Shown here: one piece after another, positions 1 to 6,141 of the stretch | How positions within the stretch are numbered: position 1 is the stretch's first letter | How the letters are laid out: each line of letters begins with the position of its first letter | Assembly (NCBI GenBank): GCA_965221125.1 | Contig: CBDCRW010000004.1 | Coordinates: 32,001-96,000 of the forward strand | Source: Alphaproteobacteria bacterium | GTDB lineage: Bacteria; Pseudomonadota; Alphaproteobacteria; UBA828 | Reading direction: 5' to 3' | DNA: 64,000 nt | Notes under the pieces: model-generated | The model's input: only the letters and a program-made list of their open reading frames with translations | Told to the model about the DNA's origin: nothing | The model's database searches: none | Translations under genes and position numbers: made by a program

Positions 1-156
1 CGCGACCGCCTGCGCGGCATCCTGGCCGGGGGAGATTCTGAACGGGTTCCCCCATTTCGTGCGGCGGTCGACCAGCACGGTGTTGTTCACGACATGCGCG
101 TATTCGAACGCCTCGCGCAGCTTCGGCTCGCGCCTGAGATTGACGACGGCGGACAT
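1..156 (-). CDS. DUF4326-like protein, N-terminal part (runs off the window)
   Basis: Translated by hand: MSAVVNLRREPKLREAFEYAHVVNNTVLVDRRTKWGNPFRISPGQDAAQAVA; the DRxxKWGNPF motif is typical of DUF4326; GGAGGGAG RBS upstream. Confidence 0.75.
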   Translation of the reverse strand, partial: MSAVVNLRREPKLREAFEYAHVVNNTVLVDRRTKWGNPFRISPGQDAAQAVA

Positions 157-294
157 GATCTCCCTCCCTCCTCCGAACGGCTTGCCCGTTCGCAAGCTTT
201 TCTCCCCTCCTGGCGCGGCGGCGGACTCCGGGCCCATGGCAGAAAAAAAGGCGACCGCCGAAACGGCCGCCCGAGTTGGGGGAGGAAGGGTCGG

Positions 295-756
295 CTAGAA
301 CGGGATTTCCATGCCGGACTCGTCGGCGCCGTTCGCCACGGTGGCGGCCTGCGCGGCCCCGTCGTTCATCGGCGCCTGGGCATCCGCGGCCGCCGCGCCG
401 TTGCCGTTCGGCTTGTCGTAGAACTGGACCCGGTTGCCCGGCACGACGATGATCTCGGTCGAGAAGCGGTCCGAGTCCTCGCCGTCCCTGCGCCAGCGCC
501 GGGTCTGCATCTTGCCCTCGACGTGGACCAGCCGGCCCTTCACCGCGTGCTTCTGGAGCATGTCGATCAGGCCGGGCTGGAAGGTGACGACGCGGTGCCA
601 CTCGGTCCGGTCGACCTTCTGGCCCGACTTGTCGAAATAGGACTCGTCGGTCGCGATGCTCAGATTGGCGACGCGCCCGCCCGAGGCCAGATTGTTGACG
701 GTGACGTCGGCGCCCAACCGGCCGACCAGTTCCGCGTGGTTCTTTCCGAATGCCAT
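295..756 (-). CDS. ssb: Single-stranded DNA-binding protein (mobile-element type)
   Basis: MAFGKNHAELVGRLGAD...ANLSIATDESY...RTEWHRVV...VEGKMQTRRW...STEI, acidic tail ending IPF; GAGGAG RBS. Confidence 0.95.
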   Translation of the reverse strand: MAFGKNHAELVGRLGADVTVNNLASGGRVANLSIATDESYFDKSGQKVDRTEWHRVVTFQPGLIDMLQKHAVKGRLVHVEGKMQTRRWRRDGEDSDRFSTEIIVVPGNRVQFYDKPNGNGAAAADAQAPMNDGAAQAATVANGADESGMEIPF

Positions 757-868
757 GACGATCTCCTCATGGGTCTGGATGATGACGATGGGTTGCGAAC
801 GACCGGAGGCCGGGACACCCTCCCGAACCCCCGTCCGCTCACTTTCTCCAAGCCCTCCTCCACCTCCG

Positions 869-1108
869 TCACGCCGGGGGAAGCGCGGCTGCCGGATCCC
901 AGGGCTCGGAGGGTGCCGCCTCGCCGAAGCCCTCCGCCGCCGGTTCCGGGGCGAGACGGGCGAAGCTGTGCTCGGGATAGACCGCCGGACGCTCCGGGCA
1001 GCGGATCGCGCGCACGTCCTCGATCGCCTCGCGGACGGCGGCCGGGTCGATGCCCAGCTCGGCGATGATGCCGGCGGGAAGGTGGGGGAAATGGTCGGAC
1101 TGGAACAT
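869..1108 (-). CDS. Small hypothetical protein (79 aa)
   Basis: MFQSDHFPHLPAGIIAELGIDPAAVREAIEDV...; AAGAGGAG RBS; co-oriented with ssb. Confidence 0.55.
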   Translation of the reverse strand: MFQSDHFPHLPAGIIAELGIDPAAVREAIEDVRAIRCPERPAVYPEHSFARLAPEPAAEGFGEAAPSEPWDPAAALPPA

Positions 1109-1406
1109 GGCGGGGAAACTCCTCTTGCCGTTGCCCGGCCCGGCGTCGAGGCGACCGAACTCCCTCCGGCCGCCCTGCCGGACACGCCCCCCGCGAAAGC
1201 TCTTCTCCAACTCCGGAGTGCGCTCCGCTCCGACGGCGGACGATGGTGGGCAGGCGGAGAAGCCGGGACCGGCCCCGGCAGGCGTTGCGATCGTGCGCGC
1301 GTCAGCAACGTCACGACCGCCGCCGGCGCCGTCGATGCGGCGCGCGCAGGCGAGGATGTCGGCGCGACCGGATCGGCGGTTCGGTTCGGAGGAGCGGTCC
1401 TCGGCG

Positions 1407-1637
1407 CTACAGCCGTCCGGCGACGAACCCGGTCCAGCTCTCGCGCGTCCAGCCGAGGGGGCGGTTGAGCCTGTCCGCCATCTCCATCGCCTCGTCGACC
1501 CCCAGCACCACCAGCGACGTGCCGATGGCGGCGTCCATTTCGTCGACGACGATGCGGATTTGCTGAAAGCCCGTGTCGGGGTCCTCTACGGGCGCAAACG
1601 CATAGACGGGATTGTCGGGCAGGGTCATGCTGCTCAT
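1407..1637 (-). CDS. Small acidic hypothetical protein (76 aa)
   Basis: MSSMTLPDNPVYAFAPVEDPDTGFQQIRIVVDE...ADRLNRPLGWTRESW; GGAG RBS; protein-like composition. Confidence 0.65.
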   Translation of the reverse strand: MSSMTLPDNPVYAFAPVEDPDTGFQQIRIVVDEMDAAIGTSLVVLGVDEAMEMADRLNRPLGWTRESWTGFVAGRL

Positions 1638-1776
1638 CGTGCGATCTCCCGGTGATGGACAGGGGCGGGTGAATATCGGTCTCATCGGCCGACGGCGCGG
1701 GCAGCGTTGCAGCGGCCCCCCGGCCGGCCATACGCATAGCGGCGGGCGGCGGGCCGGCTGCGCAGCAGGGGGCCGT

Positions 1777-3042
1777 TCAGGACCAGGACGTCAACGAGGC
1801 CATCGGGCTCGCGTCGGTGACGATCTCGACCCGGTCGCGGTCGAGCTTCTCGAAGGCGAGACAGAGAGCGATGTCGGATTCACTGTCGAACGGCCCGTGC
1901 TCGCGCCCCGTCTCCACCTCGATCACGGTCCAGGTCGGGTCCCAGACCGGGATGCCGCGAAACGCTCCCGAACTCTCGCGATGCTTGCGCGAGCACGGCT
2001 CGCAGCGGGCGACCCCCGGCGAGGGCGTGTTGCACTCGACACACCGGCCCTTCGCCCGCCGCTCGGCATAGCGGCGGCGCCGGGCGGCCTGCTCCGCCTC
2101 GGGGTTGCGCCGCGCTTCCTTGGCCACGGCGCAGGGCGCGCAGTAGGCCGCGCCGCCGAAGGTGGGCGTCCGGCACTTTACGCAGACCCCGGCGGTCCGG
2201 CGAGCATGGTAGCGGTCGCGCCCGGCGTCGCGGCAGGCCTCGCACTCGGCCGCCCCGTTGGCGGGCTTCCCGCAACTCGTGCAATCGCCCCTGGCGCGCC
2301 GTTCGGCATAGCGCCGGCGGTCGGCCTCCCGCCTGGCCTCCGGGTCGCGCTTCCGCCGCTTGTTCCGGGCCTCGCCACAGGGGCCGCAATAGAGCTTCCC
2401 GCCGGGGGCGGGCGCCGCGCACTTTACGCAGAGGCCGGCGGTGCGGCGACCGGCATCGCGCGCGCGTCGGGCGGCCCGCCGGTCGTCGCGGCACGGCTCG
2501 CAGAGGCCCCGGCCCTCCTCGGTCGGGACATGCCCGCAACGGACACAGAGCCCGGCCGCGCGGCGGGCCTCGCTGCGCCGGCGGCTGCGTGCCCGGTCGG
2601 CCTCCCGCTTGGCCTCGGGATCGCGGCCGCCACAGGGGATTCCCTCGGCCTTCGCCTTGGCATAGCGTGCGCGGTCGCGTGCGCGATGCTGCTCGGCGCA
2701 GGGCTCGCAGGTGGTGCGATCCGGGCGCGCGGGAGCCCGGCCGCATTTTGTGCAGATGCCGGCGGCCTTGCGTTCGATGTGGAGCCGGCGGCTGCGCTCG
2801 CGCTCGTACTCCTTCGCCCGCACCGGATCCCGCACGGGCTTGCCCTCGGCGCGAAGCCGGGCCGAGCGGGCGCGGTCGGCGGCGTTGCGTTTCTCCGTGC
2901 AGGGGGCGCACAGCGTGCGGTCCGGCACCGGCCCGGTCTTGCCGCACTTCACACACAACCCGGCCGCCTTGCGGGCTGCGACCCTCCGGTGGAAGCGCGC
3001 GAGATCGGCCCGACGACGCTTGTCGATGTCGGCATAAGCCAT
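1777..3042 (-). CDS. Tandem C4 zinc-finger repeat protein (7 x CxxC-x9-11-CxxC with Arg-rich linkers)
   Basis: Seven regularly spaced double CxxC units in the translation; strong GGAGGAGG RBS at 3048-3055. Confidence 0.85.
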   Translation of the reverse strand: MAYADIDKRRRADLARFHRRVAARKAAGLCVKCGKTGPVPDRTLCAPCTEKRNAADRARSARLRAEGKPVRDPVRAKEYERERSRRLHIERKAAGICTKCGRAPARPDRTTCEPCAEQHRARDRARYAKAKAEGIPCGGRDPEAKREADRARSRRRSEARRAAGLCVRCGHVPTEEGRGLCEPCRDDRRAARRARDAGRRTAGLCVKCAAPAPGGKLYCGPCGEARNKRRKRDPEARREADRRRYAERRARGDCTSCGKPANGAAECEACRDAGRDRYHARRTAGVCVKCRTPTFGGAAYCAPCAVAKEARRNPEAEQAARRRRYAERRAKGRCVECNTPSPGVARCEPCSRKHRESSGAFRGIPVWDPTWTVIEVETGREHGPFDSESDIALCLAFEKLDRDRVEIVTDASPMASLTSWS

Positions 3043-3126
3043 GACGGCCTCCTCCTTGCCAATCCGGAAACGGACAAGGACGCCCCGCCGGTGTCGGGCC
3101 GGCAGGACGTCCTCGGGAGGAAGGGG

Positions 3127-3456
3127 TCAGCCCTTCTGGCGGCGGTTGCAGAACAGGGACGTCGATACGGCACCCCAGTACTGGACCCCGCCGCGGCTCT
3201 TGAGGCCGGTGCAGACGATGACCTCGTTGGGGGCGGGCCGCATCTCCTTGACCGCCTTCAGGGTGGCGGTGACGACCTTCGCCCTACGGCTCCCGCCGCC
3301 CTTCGGTGCCGGGTCGGAGCAGCGCCGAATCTCGCCGTCCGCCATCGCCCGGAACTTCTCGACCGCATAGCGATCGTCGGCCAGGCCGGGCCCGAAGAAA
3401 TGCGTGAGGAAGGTCGCCGCGGTGTTGCCGGGCATCGCCATCGTTGCTGCGCTCAT
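3127..3456 (-). CDS. Hypothetical protein (109 aa)
   Basis: GGAG RBS before ATG; first gene of the minus-strand run; no recognisable family. Confidence 0.55.
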   Translation of the reverse strand: MSAATMAMPGNTAATFLTHFFGPGLADDRYAVEKFRAMADGEIRRCSDPAPKGGGSRRAKVVTATLKAVKEMRPAPNEVIVCTGLKSRGGVQYWGAVSTSLFCNRRQKG

Positions 3457-3665
3457 GCTGCCGTCTCCATCGTGCCGTTGTGGAAATCGGCGGCAGCGCC
3501 CCGCCCTCCGAAGCGCCGACCGCCGCCTTACTCACGGTCAAAACTCCCCTCTCGGTGGTGAGGAGCGCGCAAATGGAGACGATGGCAGGACGGCGGCGCA
3601 GCGGCAGGAGCGCGGCACGAGTTGAAAAGCCGCACCGGGTGTCATAAAAGGAGCCATGAAGGCGG

Positions 3666-4073
3666 ATGCGCGCGAGGCTCGGGTTGCAGACGTTCAAGAC
3701 CAAGGCGTTCGCCCGTTTCGCCGACCGCGAGGGGCTGGAGGATGAGGCGCTGTGCGAGGCTGTCCGGCGCGCCGGGGAAGGGTTGGTCGACGCCGACCTC
3801 GGCGGCGGTGTCATCAAGCAGCGCATCGCCCGCAAGGGCGGCGGCCGGTCCGGCGGGTTCCGCACGATCGTGCTGTTCCGCCGGGGCGAACTGGCGTTCT
3901 TCGTCTACGGGTTCGCGAAGAGCGACCGGGAGAACCTGCGCCGGGACGAGTTGGCGACCTACAGGCTGCTGGCCGACGGGTATCTGGCGCTGGACAGGAA
4001 GGGTCTTGCGGCCGCACAGGCCGCTGGAACGATTGTCGAGGTGAAATGCGATGACCAAGCAATACAAGAGTGA
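3666..4073 (+). CDS. Type II toxin, RelE/ParE (HigB-like) family
   Basis: FKTKAFARFA...GLVDADLGGGVIKQRIAR.G.GRSGGFRTIV...FFVYGFAKSDRENL; overlaps downstream HTH gene; start may be TTG at 3684. Confidence 0.9.
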   Translation: MRARLGLQTFKTKAFARFADREGLEDEALCEAVRRAGEGLVDADLGGGVIKQRIARKGGGRSGGFRTIVLFRRGELAFFVYGFAKSDRENLRRDELATYRLLADGYLALDRKGLAAAQAAGTIVEVKCDDQAIQE

Positions 4074-4368
4074 GGCGCTGGCGGCGGCGCACGAGGCGGC
4101 GCTCGGCCTGGCCGAGGCGGGCCTCATGTCGAAACAGACCATGCGGAAGTTCGACGAGATGTGCCTTACCCCCGTCAGGGAGATGACGCCCGAGGACATC
4201 CGCGAGCTTCGGCTGCGCGAGCATGCGAGCCAGGCGGTGTTCGCGCGCTACCTCAACGTGACGACGGGTCTGGTGAGCCAGTGGGAGCGCGGCGAGAAGC
4301 GCCCGCGCGGGACCTCGCTCAAGCTGCTGACACTGGTCGCCAAGAACGGCCTCGCGGCGGTCGCGTGA
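4051..4368 (+). CDS. XRE/HTH antitoxin (HigA-like)
   Basis: IRELRLREHASQAVFARYLNVTTGLVSQWERGEKRPRG HTH; toxin-first arrangement. Confidence 0.9.
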   Translation: MTKQYKSEALAAAHEAALGLAEAGLMSKQTMRKFDEMCLTPVREMTPEDIRELRLREHASQAVFARYLNVTTGLVSQWERGEKRPRGTSLKLLTLVAKNGLAAVA

Positions 4369-4400
4369 CGGATTGGCGGCGTCTGTCGGGACATGTCCCG

Positions 4401-5501
4401 TCAGGAATTGGATCGAATCCGGTGACTATACGATGACGGGCAGATACGGGTCTCAAGAAACATAAATAATAACAGTGCTTTATCCACTGTTGCTGCACAA
4501 GAGTGGCGAAGGTCGTGGATGCGCACGTCGTCGAGGCCGGCACGGGCGCGCACGCGGGCCCAGGGCTCGAAGATGCTGGACAGGCGCCGCCCCGCGCGCG
4601 TGCCGGGGATCACCCACGGGTTGCCCGGCACGCGCGGGATGGCAGAGAGAACCTCCGCCGCTTCCGCCGAGAGCGAGACCGTGCGCGGGCCGGTCTTGCT
4701 GTCGCGCAAGCGAAGCTCGCGGGCCTCCATATGCACGTCCTCCCAGCGGAGCGTGAGGATCTCGTTCCGCCGGCAGCCGGTGAGCATGAGGAGGCGGAGC
4801 GCGGCCGCCGCATGGGACGAGACGCGCCCCGTCGCCTCCAGCTCGTCCAGCGCGGTGCCTAGGCGCCGGAACTCGGCGTCGGTGAGGAAGCGCTCGCGCC
4901 GGCCCACCCTGTACTTCTGGGCCGCGCGGCAGGGGTTGACCCCCTCGGCGGCGACGCCCCAGGCCTGGGCCTGGTCGATCATGCGCGACAGCGTCGCCAC
5001 CACCAGGTTGGCCATGGCCGGGCGGTCGCGAAGGGAATGCTGGAGGTCGGCGACGTCGCGCCGCGCGATGACGGAGACCGGGAGCGTGCCGAGGGCGGGG
5101 ACGATATGGCGCTCGATGGCCATTCGGTACTGGGCGGCGGTCGAGGGCTTGCAGCGGACCGCGACGTGCTCGCGCAGGTAGCGCGCAGCAAGGGTTGCGA
5201 GGGTGGGGCCGGCGGGCTTGGGGGCCGGGCGGTCCACGAAATCCTCGCCGGCCCTGATACGGGCGATGACGAGGGCTGCGCGCCTGCGGGCCTCGCCCGC
5301 GCCGATGACGCCGTGGCGGCCGACGGTCGTGCGCCTGGTGCCCGCCGGGCCACGGGTCTGCACGACGTAGACCCTGGCGCCGGAGGGATAGATGCGGACG
5401 CCGAAGCCGGTGAGCGCACGGTCCCACAACACCCGGTCGCGGCCCGGCGCGAGCGCGCCCACCACCGCGTCCGTGATCGTCCCGTGCGTGGGTTCATTCA
5501 T
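4401..5501 (-). pseudogene. Tyrosine integrase with N-terminal arm-binding (DUF4102-type) domain, truncated after HDLRHS
   Basis: LWDRALTGFGVRIYPSG N-domain; LLMLTGCRRNEI (Arg), DSKTG (Lys), HDLRHS; then unrelated AT-rich-encoded residues with no LGH and no properly placed catalytic Tyr. Confidence 0.85.
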
Positions 5502-6141
5502 ATCGAAGAGCCGTCATCACGGAAGCGCACGACGGCTTCACCGCGTAACGCGCCGGAATCACCGGAATCGGCCCGTAAGCACGCGCCGCAAGCGCGCCCA
5601 AACCGGCGCAAAGGTCTGACATCGGTAATTCTGATGGATTTGAAAGGGTTTATCGCAGACTTGCGCGCTGGCTTGTTCGCGGCGGCGCGGCGCAAAGACC
5701 GCTTGCGCGGCGCCCCGAGGCCCGGGCCCGAGGCCTCTTCATTATTGTGGCCATGAAATGCCGACCGTCGCGGAGAGAAGGGCACTGAGTCTGCTCTCTC
5801 TACGACGGGCGTGTGCGTGAATCGCCCTCGCAGACGCGGGAAAAGCGCGGAATTATGTTTGTTTCAAACCCACACCAATAACGCGGGACGCAGTCGGCTC
5901 CTAATCGTCTGAACGCTCGAAATATGTAGAAGGTAGCATAGCGAATTTATATCACCAAATAGTGTGAATTCAACGCTCTGCGGCAACTTAGTGGCGATAT
6001 CGTGATTAGCGGTTGTCGATAAGCACTAATCACCCTCAATCGTCCTGCGAACGTCAAACGTCCGCGCTTATGAAAAACGCCTCGGTTCTTTCGGCTCGTT
6101 TCGCGCCTCGGACTGCAACGGGAATACAAGTCAGTCAAGTT

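Follow-up and report, generated by a model that had tools for sequence, protein, structure and literature searches.

The Seven-Finger Gene and Its Product

We analysed a stretch of 64,000 nucleotides from an uncultured-type lineage of Alphaproteobacteria (UBA828; assembly GCA_965221125.1, contig CBDCRW010000004.1, positions 32,001 to 96,000), which is called the window below. Our subject is a gene on its reverse strand, at 1777..3042 (stop codon included), which lies on a mobile island and encodes a protein of 421 amino acids with seven Cys4 units of the zinc-finger type. A strong ribosome-binding site, AGGAGG, is located 7-8 nt 5' of the ATG at 3042.

The pattern scan of the protein found exactly seven CxxC-x(9-11)-CxxC units, with spacers of 11, 11, 11, 10, 9, 10 and 9 residues. 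All of them are encoded on the reverse strand. Finger 1 (CVKC-x11-CAPC, residues 30-48, 2899..2955) has Cys columns that are invariant in the alignment of homologues. Both the scan and the alignment place finger 2 (CTKC-x11-CEPC, residues 97-115, 2698..2754), finger 3 (CVRC-x11-CEPC, residues 166-184, 2491..2547), finger 5 (CTSC-x9-CEAC, residues 254-270, 2233..2283), finger 6 (CVKC-x10-CAPC, residues 287-304, 2131..2184) and finger 7 (CVEC-x9-CEPC, residues 334-350, 1993..2043). Finger 4 (CVKC-x10-CGPC, residues 205-222, 2377..2430) is hybrid or absent in forms with five or six fingers. The units contain 28 of the 30 cysteines of the protein. An R(R/K)xxGxC motif precedes every one of the seven, and R(D/N)P occurs four times, at residues 71, 140, 232 and 312. 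In 20,000 shuffles of the protein the mean number of units was 0.025 and the maximum was 2, against the 7 observed; therefore, chance can be excluded. A first-pass annotation, made by a model from the letters alone, had described the same units, spacers and repeated motifs, and our scan agrees with it exactly.

The finger array is strongly basic, with 97 Lys and Arg residues against 46 Asp and Glu residues and an isoelectric point (pI) of 10.38. By contrast, the last 64 residues (358-421, 1780..1971, reverse strand) have a pI of 4.27, which bears out the small acidic C-terminal domain noticed earlier. This domain has a predicted beta-beta-alpha-beta-alpha order and carries the conserved motif FRGIPxWDPxxTVIE...CLAF. 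It had also been proposed that units 4-5 and 6-7 are a duplicated pair. Repeats at the DNA level inside the gene support such an internal duplication: positions 2047-2110 and 2287-2350, which are spaced 240 nt apart, are 75% identical across 64 nt, and positions 2318-2349 and 2594-2625 share 91% identity over 32 nt.

Conservation and Finger Number among Homologues

Among 8000 candidates scored, 1006 homologues were found at E ≤ 0.001; cluster representatives numbered 2104 at E ≤ 0.001 and 78 at 1e-30. Few of the homologues are named, and these are 'hypothetical protein' entries from metagenome-assembled genomes (MAGs) of Rhodospirillaceae or Alphaproteobacteria. The lengths of 121 homologues rise in steps of about 42 amino acids, and their finger counts range from four to eight (four fingers, n = 3; five, n = 10; six, n = 25; seven, n = 55; eight, n = 28). 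Finger number thus varies within the family, as had been suspected.

We examined the cysteines in an alignment of 97 rows. All 28 Cys were kept in 78 of the 97 rows, and the Cys columns were invariant or at least 90% conserved. The remaining rows lacked whole fingers in the region of fingers 4-6 and not single cysteines, so the Cys positions are held in the homologues. The idea that variable finger loops set the specificity fared less well. Loops of orthologous fingers were 52-89% identical to those of the seven-finger protein, at 70% identity for the whole protein, and different fingers within the protein showed only 26% loop identity. The loops are therefore finger-specific and conserved, and not hypervariable. 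Among ten longer representatives that were scanned, four were chimeras or read-throughs with transposase, integrase, LolA-like or DruA sequences, and six had no domain.

Predicted Structure

An AlphaFold2 model of the seven-finger protein, built from the 97-sequence alignment, had a mean predicted local distance difference test score (pLDDT) of 85.9 and a predicted template modelling score (pTM) of 0.38. Because the pLDDT is high but the pTM is low, we regard the model as an extended string of modules. In it, seven helix-knuckle-helix modules come first, and residues 368-418 form a beta-beta-alpha-beta-alpha domain after them. DSSP assigned short strand bridges at the first CxxC and a helix starting at the second CxxC in all seven units. 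In the model the Cys4 units thus fit a treble-clef-like description, which had been suggested from the letters: a short beta hairpin holds the first CxxC, and the second CxxC is located at the N-terminus of the helix.

Fold searches were largely negative. Foldseek of the model against the Protein Data Bank (PDB) gave no match at E ≤ 1e-3; its best rows were eukaryotic C2H2 arrays with E-values of 0.29-2 and TM-scores of 0.06-0.16, which are non-significant. VIA-align over 48,161 chains gave a best Z of 4.3, below the meaningful level. A separate model of the last finger and the tail (pLDDT 83.7) had a best Z of 4.0 and no Foldseek match at E ≤ 1e-3. A segment of topoisomerase II and Erh1 were considered as fold candidates for the C-terminal domain and set aside, their Z values of 4.0-4.3 being under the meaningful level. 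A single unit had no significant fold match in these searches either, and the best rows for a profile of 37 units against the PDB were PHF5A (E 0.012), eL40 and S14, all of them generic Cys4 knuckles.

Searches for a Known Family

Searches of Pfam, PHROGs, NCBIfam, PADLOC and the PDB sequences with the seven-finger protein gave nothing significant, and the sole PDB sequence match was compositional (E 0.072). Together with the fold searches, this agrees with the earlier statement that no characterised family could be recognised. When 37 units were scanned one by one, only zinc-ribbon or treble-clef families of Pfam appeared, all of them sub-threshold: 10 units matched DZR_2 (PF18912) and 6 matched DZR (PF12773). 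For the whole protein, the DZR score was 13.7 bits at a gathering cut-off of 27.3. One homologue cluster bears a precomputed PF18912 label. In the ESM Atlas the protein's own cluster scored 0.96, and viral DZR_2 clusters at 0.86-0.87 serve as leads only.

Two other assignments were rejected. The DksA/TraR zinc finger (PF01258) matched 5 of the 37 units, with a best E of 0.0017 and all below the 24.9-bit cut-off; its CxxC-x17-CxxC, which comes after a coiled coil, has a spacer of 17 residues, compared with 9-11 here. Membership among HNH or endonuclease VII nucleases was dropped as well, since the protein had no HNH (beta-beta-alpha-Me) match in Pfam or PHROGs; only a phage relative, L107, has that motif.

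In the literature we found no paper describing the seven-finger family, although supplementary tables, such as those of leading-region families in PMC11541004, might list it. The type of zinc module and short phage arrays of it are already known. What is new, in the sense of being undescribed in the searchable literature, is a free-standing protein of four to eight units with an acidic domain and a conserved partner gene, orf109.

Phage Relatives of the Zinc Unit

Foldseek against BFVD returned six small phage 'double zinc ribbon' proteins at E ≤ 1e-3, and its weaker rows (E 0.01-0.3) were HNH and endonuclease VII proteins of phages. Of 224 candidate stretches on IMG/VR contigs, 162 code for relatives, and 17 open reading frames (ORFs) that were read out contain 1-4 pattern-matching units each. 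Two phage proteins score above the Pfam cut-offs, L055 for DZR_2 (36.3 bits) and L099 for DZR (37.3 bits). The hhalign comparison of the unit profile with the four-unit L099 gave a probability of 96.1 and an E-value of 3.4e-9, by which the repeat unit of the seven-finger protein is homologous to proteins that pass the DZR and DZR_2 cut-offs.

A third phage protein, L107, carries three units ahead of an HNH nuclease domain (HNH_4, 27.4 bits at a cut-off of 22; phrog_1035 'endonuclease VII', 4.7e-13) and is matched to the seven-finger protein by BLASTP at 2e-12. The same repeat unit thus forms the N-terminal part of some phage HNH/endonuclease VII proteins. The L055 protein sits in a replication module, between a helicase loader and pieces of a DNA methyltransferase. 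As a separate observation, this four-unit protein of 217 amino acids (L055, 7965-8615, forward strand) recurs on dozens of near-identical phage contigs of 40-80 kb with a guanine-cytosine content of about 44%.

The phage DZR_2 and DZR proteins share with ours an Arg/Lys-rich helix, a G-(L/I)-CxxCG knuckle, a loop, a CxxC and a second helix, and they too lie on mobile DNA in DNA-metabolism neighbourhoods. They differ in having 2-4 units in 130-290 amino acids, in being Lys-rich, and in lacking both the acidic C-terminal domain and the orf109 partner. They are uncharacterised as well.

Comparison with Other Zinc Module Arrays

The first-pass annotation held that long tandem finger arrays are mostly a eukaryotic design. 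This was overstated, as phage contigs often carry homologous arrays of 2-4 units and bacterial topoisomerase I also has tandem C4 zinc-ribbon arrays (PMC4678816, PMC9369019). According to these papers, the tandem C4 zinc-ribbon domains of Escherichia coli topoisomerase I (TopA D5-D7, 'Topo_C_ZnRpt') bind single-stranded DNA, and they are the best-documented precedent for bacterial tandem C4 modules. However, the TopA modules are four-stranded beta domains attached to an enzyme, whereas our units are modelled as helix-knuckle-helix in a free-standing protein. Homology between the two is unconfirmed, with no sequence or fold match seen. The family zf-C4_Topoisom was absent among the Pfam matches of the whole protein (E ≤ 0.1) and among the best 25 of 37 families for the units (E ≤ 1).

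Eukaryotic polydactyl C2H2 proteins such as CTCF, PRDM9 and ZFP568 resemble the seven-finger protein in their beads-on-a-string layout with a helix after each knuckle. Their ligands are C2H2 and their units have 28-30 amino acids, in contrast to C4 ligands and units of 33-69 amino acids here. There is no sequence relationship, and the likeness is one of design only.

The Island and Its Genes

Immediately upstream of the seven-finger gene, on the same strand, lies orf109 (3127..3456), a conserved uncharacterised gene for 109 amino acids. Downstream on the reverse strand follow two small ORFs, orf92 (1407..1685; cluster 8), which is conserved and has no Pfam, PHROG or NCBIfam match, and orf113 (869..1210; cluster 24), which by locus comparison is conserved in some loci. 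They are followed by ssb (295..756), whose product of 153 amino acids ends in MEIPF (Pfam SSB, E 2.1e-22), and by the start of a DUF4326 gene by Pfam (1..237), which runs off the window. A YAcAr/SLOG gene comes just outside the window after DUF4326 (G000:C4:30512-32020). On the other side, Pfam identified a RelE-family toxin (PF06296) and HTH_3 antitoxin pair on the forward strand (3666..4368), and the tyrosine integrase of the island on the reverse strand (4401..5501; Phage_integrase, Arm-DNA-bind_3, SAM_3). Pfam and the locus comparison therefore uphold the earlier placement of the gene on a mobile element, where ssb and DUF4326 share its strand.

We compared 43 loci from 18 genomes, in which loci from one genome are not independent. 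Counting only genes on the same strand, orf109 began no more than 400 nt upstream in 27 of 41 loci, which represent 14 of 17 genomes; ssb followed within 3.1 kb in 22 of 38 loci, and SLOG was present within 7 kb in 19 of 37. A tyrosine integrase was present within 10 kb in 22 of 34 loci and a TrwC relaxase in 10 of 34. In six loci TrwC was on the same strand, 3.2-7.2 kb downstream. The E-values of the neighbour families were 3.3e-24 for YAcAr/SLOG, 7.7e-13 for DUF4326 and 4.8e-64 for TrwC.

For orf109 itself, 356 homologues were found, and an alignment of 64 rows contained 19 invariant columns, including H19, C82 and W94. Its product had no Pfam, PHROG, NCBIfam or PADLOC match, and nothing above 0.80 in the ESM Atlas. 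A complex prediction for the seven-finger protein with the orf109 product gave scores of 0.16 and 0.00 against a mark of 0.32, which, without controls, gives no verdict either way.

A sigma-70 scan of window positions 1-6000 found no sites. A terminator-like hairpin with a T-run lies at 249-272 on the reverse strand, directly after the ssb stop codon, and may end a transcription unit of orf109, the seven-finger gene and ssb; terminator-like sites in positions 1-6000 were no commoner than in shuffles.

Distribution and Copies across Genomes

A search across the order found matches in 19 of 49 genomes, with up to 53 matching segments per genome. Besides the source genome, 17 of 20 genomes of its genus matched, compared with 1 of 28 from other genera, which divide into 0 of 23 for the remainder of its family and 1 of 5 for a second family. 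A class-wide profile of the last finger and the tail was found in 2 of 120 other genomes, which belong to two different families. Closed MAG chromosomes contained 13 loci in one case and 4 in another. Searches by tblastn gave no match in PLSDB plasmids (E 1e-5) or GenBank phages (E 1e-3).

The source genome (G000) has eight loci, with one seven-finger copy and several four-finger copies that are 42-51% identical over the aligned parts. Each four-finger paralogue is accompanied by an orf109 of its own and, in most cases, by a separate ssb. The C-terminal domain is visibly kept in several short copies and is missing from the one at C7:295401. The reading frame of the copy at C5:721778 continues past a TGA into that of orf109 upstream. 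In addition, a four-finger paralogue of 268 amino acids with its own ssb has an identical predicted protein at G000:C4:467-3350 and G000:C7:49139-49933, and a second tyrosine integrase adjoins the ssb of the C4 copy.

Proposed Role of the Seven-Finger Protein

The seven-finger protein most likely binds DNA. Our favoured interpretation, to which we assign a probability of about 0.45, is that it is a DNA-binding accessory protein of the DNA-entry or establishment module of a mobile island, which may be integrative, mobilisable or conjugative. Each unit would consist of a helix, a Cys4 zinc knuckle and a second helix, and the putative zinc would staple the Arg-rich helices. These helices would run along a nucleic acid, for which the island's single-stranded or newly replicated DNA is the likeliest candidate. 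The acidic C-terminal domain might serve as a docking site for a partner protein or fold over the basic fingers. A role of this kind in the processing of island DNA is suggested because the helices are basic and probably stapled by zinc, because the same unit stands before a nuclease, and because two kinds of mobile element have the units in their replication or SSB modules.

The leading region of a conjugative element is the side of the transfer origin (oriT) that enters the recipient first, and its genes are oriented so that the transferred strand is the template. On our reading, orf109, the seven-finger gene and ssb would be read together, ahead of DUF4326 and SLOG, and would form a gene set of the kind typical for such a leading or establishment region. 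Expression would presumably be timed to suit this module, and a protective or anti-defence effect may go with it. According to PMC11541004, the genes for SSB, anti-defence functions and toxin-antitoxin pairs in leading regions all point the same way, and PMC9503650 proposes that DUF4326 and SLOG process ADP-ribose-derived products in conflicts.

Several results weigh against this interpretation. The seven-finger protein is under every Pfam cut-off, including that of DZR_2 (16.9 bits, E 0.0058, at a gathering cut-off of 27), and so falls short of the two phage proteins with 36-37 bits. No solved relative was found in the PDB sequence or fold searches, and no topoisomerase I chain appeared among the listed Foldseek and VIA-align rows, by which an isolated unit was barely tested. 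The linkage to ssb and DUF4326 holds in part: ssb is near in the loci counted above, but of the 37 loci whose downstream flank extends over at least 8 kb, 15 lack ssb, DUF4326 and SLOG altogether in the nearest 7 kb. Many of these loci look rearranged. In three loci TrwC lies on the opposite strand, 8-9.4 kb downstream, and no relaxase is near the window's own island, in which an ORF of 2622 amino acids with a Calx-beta domain follows the SLOG gene. No oriT or nic site was located. Folding of the single strand upstream of orf109 was no better than in shuffles (z −1.39) and thus gives no hint of a single-strand promoter like Frpo. Finally, function is only weakly predicted by a basic charge or by the genomic setting. 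The placement of the gene in a leading region is thus only partly consistent with the loci. As to the Calx-beta ORF, it lies at G000:C4:20282-28150 on the forward strand, where related islands have the relaxase; the window's island may be truncated, or may carry this ORF as cargo.

The protein might instead act on its own island as a sequence-specific regulator or as an architectural factor, recognising a long composite site, for example at the attachment site, oriT or a promoter. Excision, transfer or superinfection immunity would then be under its control, and each island lineage would have fingers of matching number and identity. We consider this unlikely. In its favour, each finger has its own conserved loop (52-89% identity between orthologues, 26% between paralogues), one genome holds a seven-finger copy beside several diverged four-finger copies, all of which come with a separate orf109 and most with a separate ssb, and a tyrosine integrase is often within 10 kb. 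The same unit also precedes an HNH nuclease in the phage relative, and in homing-type enzymes such an added module usually supplies site recognition. However, the intergenic stretches of window positions 1-6000 yielded no repeated or iterated motif, the larger direct-repeat families there being all inside the gene; the integrase lies at distances from −145 to −8980 and on both strands; and the protein has no helix-turn-helix or other classical regulator domain. We slightly prefer single-stranded or entry-stage DNA binding over site-specific regulation. A further reading is a natural modular polynucleotide reader of bacterial mobile elements, in which each unit would contact a fixed number of bases of single- or double-stranded DNA, units gained or lost (four to eight in all) would adjust how long a target is read, and orf109 or SSB would be recruited by the acidic domain. 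Such a prokaryotic counterpart of C2H2 or transcription activator-like effector arrays, acting as a new establishment or anti-defence factor on the incoming strand, is improbable.

Two explanations remain. The zinc modules and the acidic tail could bind host nucleases, RNA polymerase or SSB partners in place of nucleic acid, as an anti-defence or host-manipulating scaffold or decoy. The neighbours DUF4326 and SLOG are proposed counter-defence enzymes (PMC9503650), leading regions are rich in anti-defence genes (PMC11541004), and the conserved acidic domain matches no known fold. The weak DksA/TraR matches point the same way but reach no threshold, no PADLOC or known anti-defence family was matched, and the array's net charge, about +50, would rather be expected of a protein that binds nucleic acid, so that we regard a decoy as quite unlikely. 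Least probable of all is a descendant, without the nuclease, of a phage or homing-endonuclease targeting module, which would be selfish baggage or a site-occupying 'immunity' protein that blocks cleavage or insertion. The unit is indeed common to the HNH-fused phage protein, the weaker BFVD rows are phage HNH and endonuclease VII proteins, and the gene family is a repeated insertion target of a serine-recombinase element. On the other hand, there is no nuclease motif, and longer fused forms (738-2105 amino acids) were not found, which is weak evidence. Purifying conservation is strong across more than 1000 homologues with four to eight fingers and a dedicated C-terminal domain. Because the full-length protein, including that domain, is so conserved, we argue for a function of its own.

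To our knowledge, long free-standing arrays of Cys4 modules form no described class of bacterial DNA-binding protein, and early conjugative establishment, which is poorly understood, has been studied almost only in enterobacterial plasmids. The family has more than 1000 members, and its islands reach more than 10 copies per genome. If the protein binds the transferred strand, it would be a new player in early conjugative establishment; if each unit reads bases, it would offer a compact natural scaffold for engineering DNA recognition. Even if it proves to be an ordinary non-specific coat protein, a large orphan family and its partner orf109 would gain a useful annotation.

Split Family Genes and a Probable Serine Recombinase Element

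In a related genome, G046, three genes of the family are interrupted behind finger 3, at about query residues 186-192, and their halves lie about 3.4 kb apart. They are located in L136 (G046:C3:105100-110800) at 1132-3255 on the reverse strand, at G046:C9:883003-887638 and at G046:C6:419120-423542. The insert in L136 encodes a large serine recombinase of 707 amino acids (Resolvase, Recombinase, Zn_ribbon_recom) and an HTH_32 protein. The junction alignment for the insert was uninformative. Because three genes of one genome are split at a like position and the L136 insert is of the serine-recombinase type, a small element of this type seems to target the seven-finger gene family; the copy in the window is intact.

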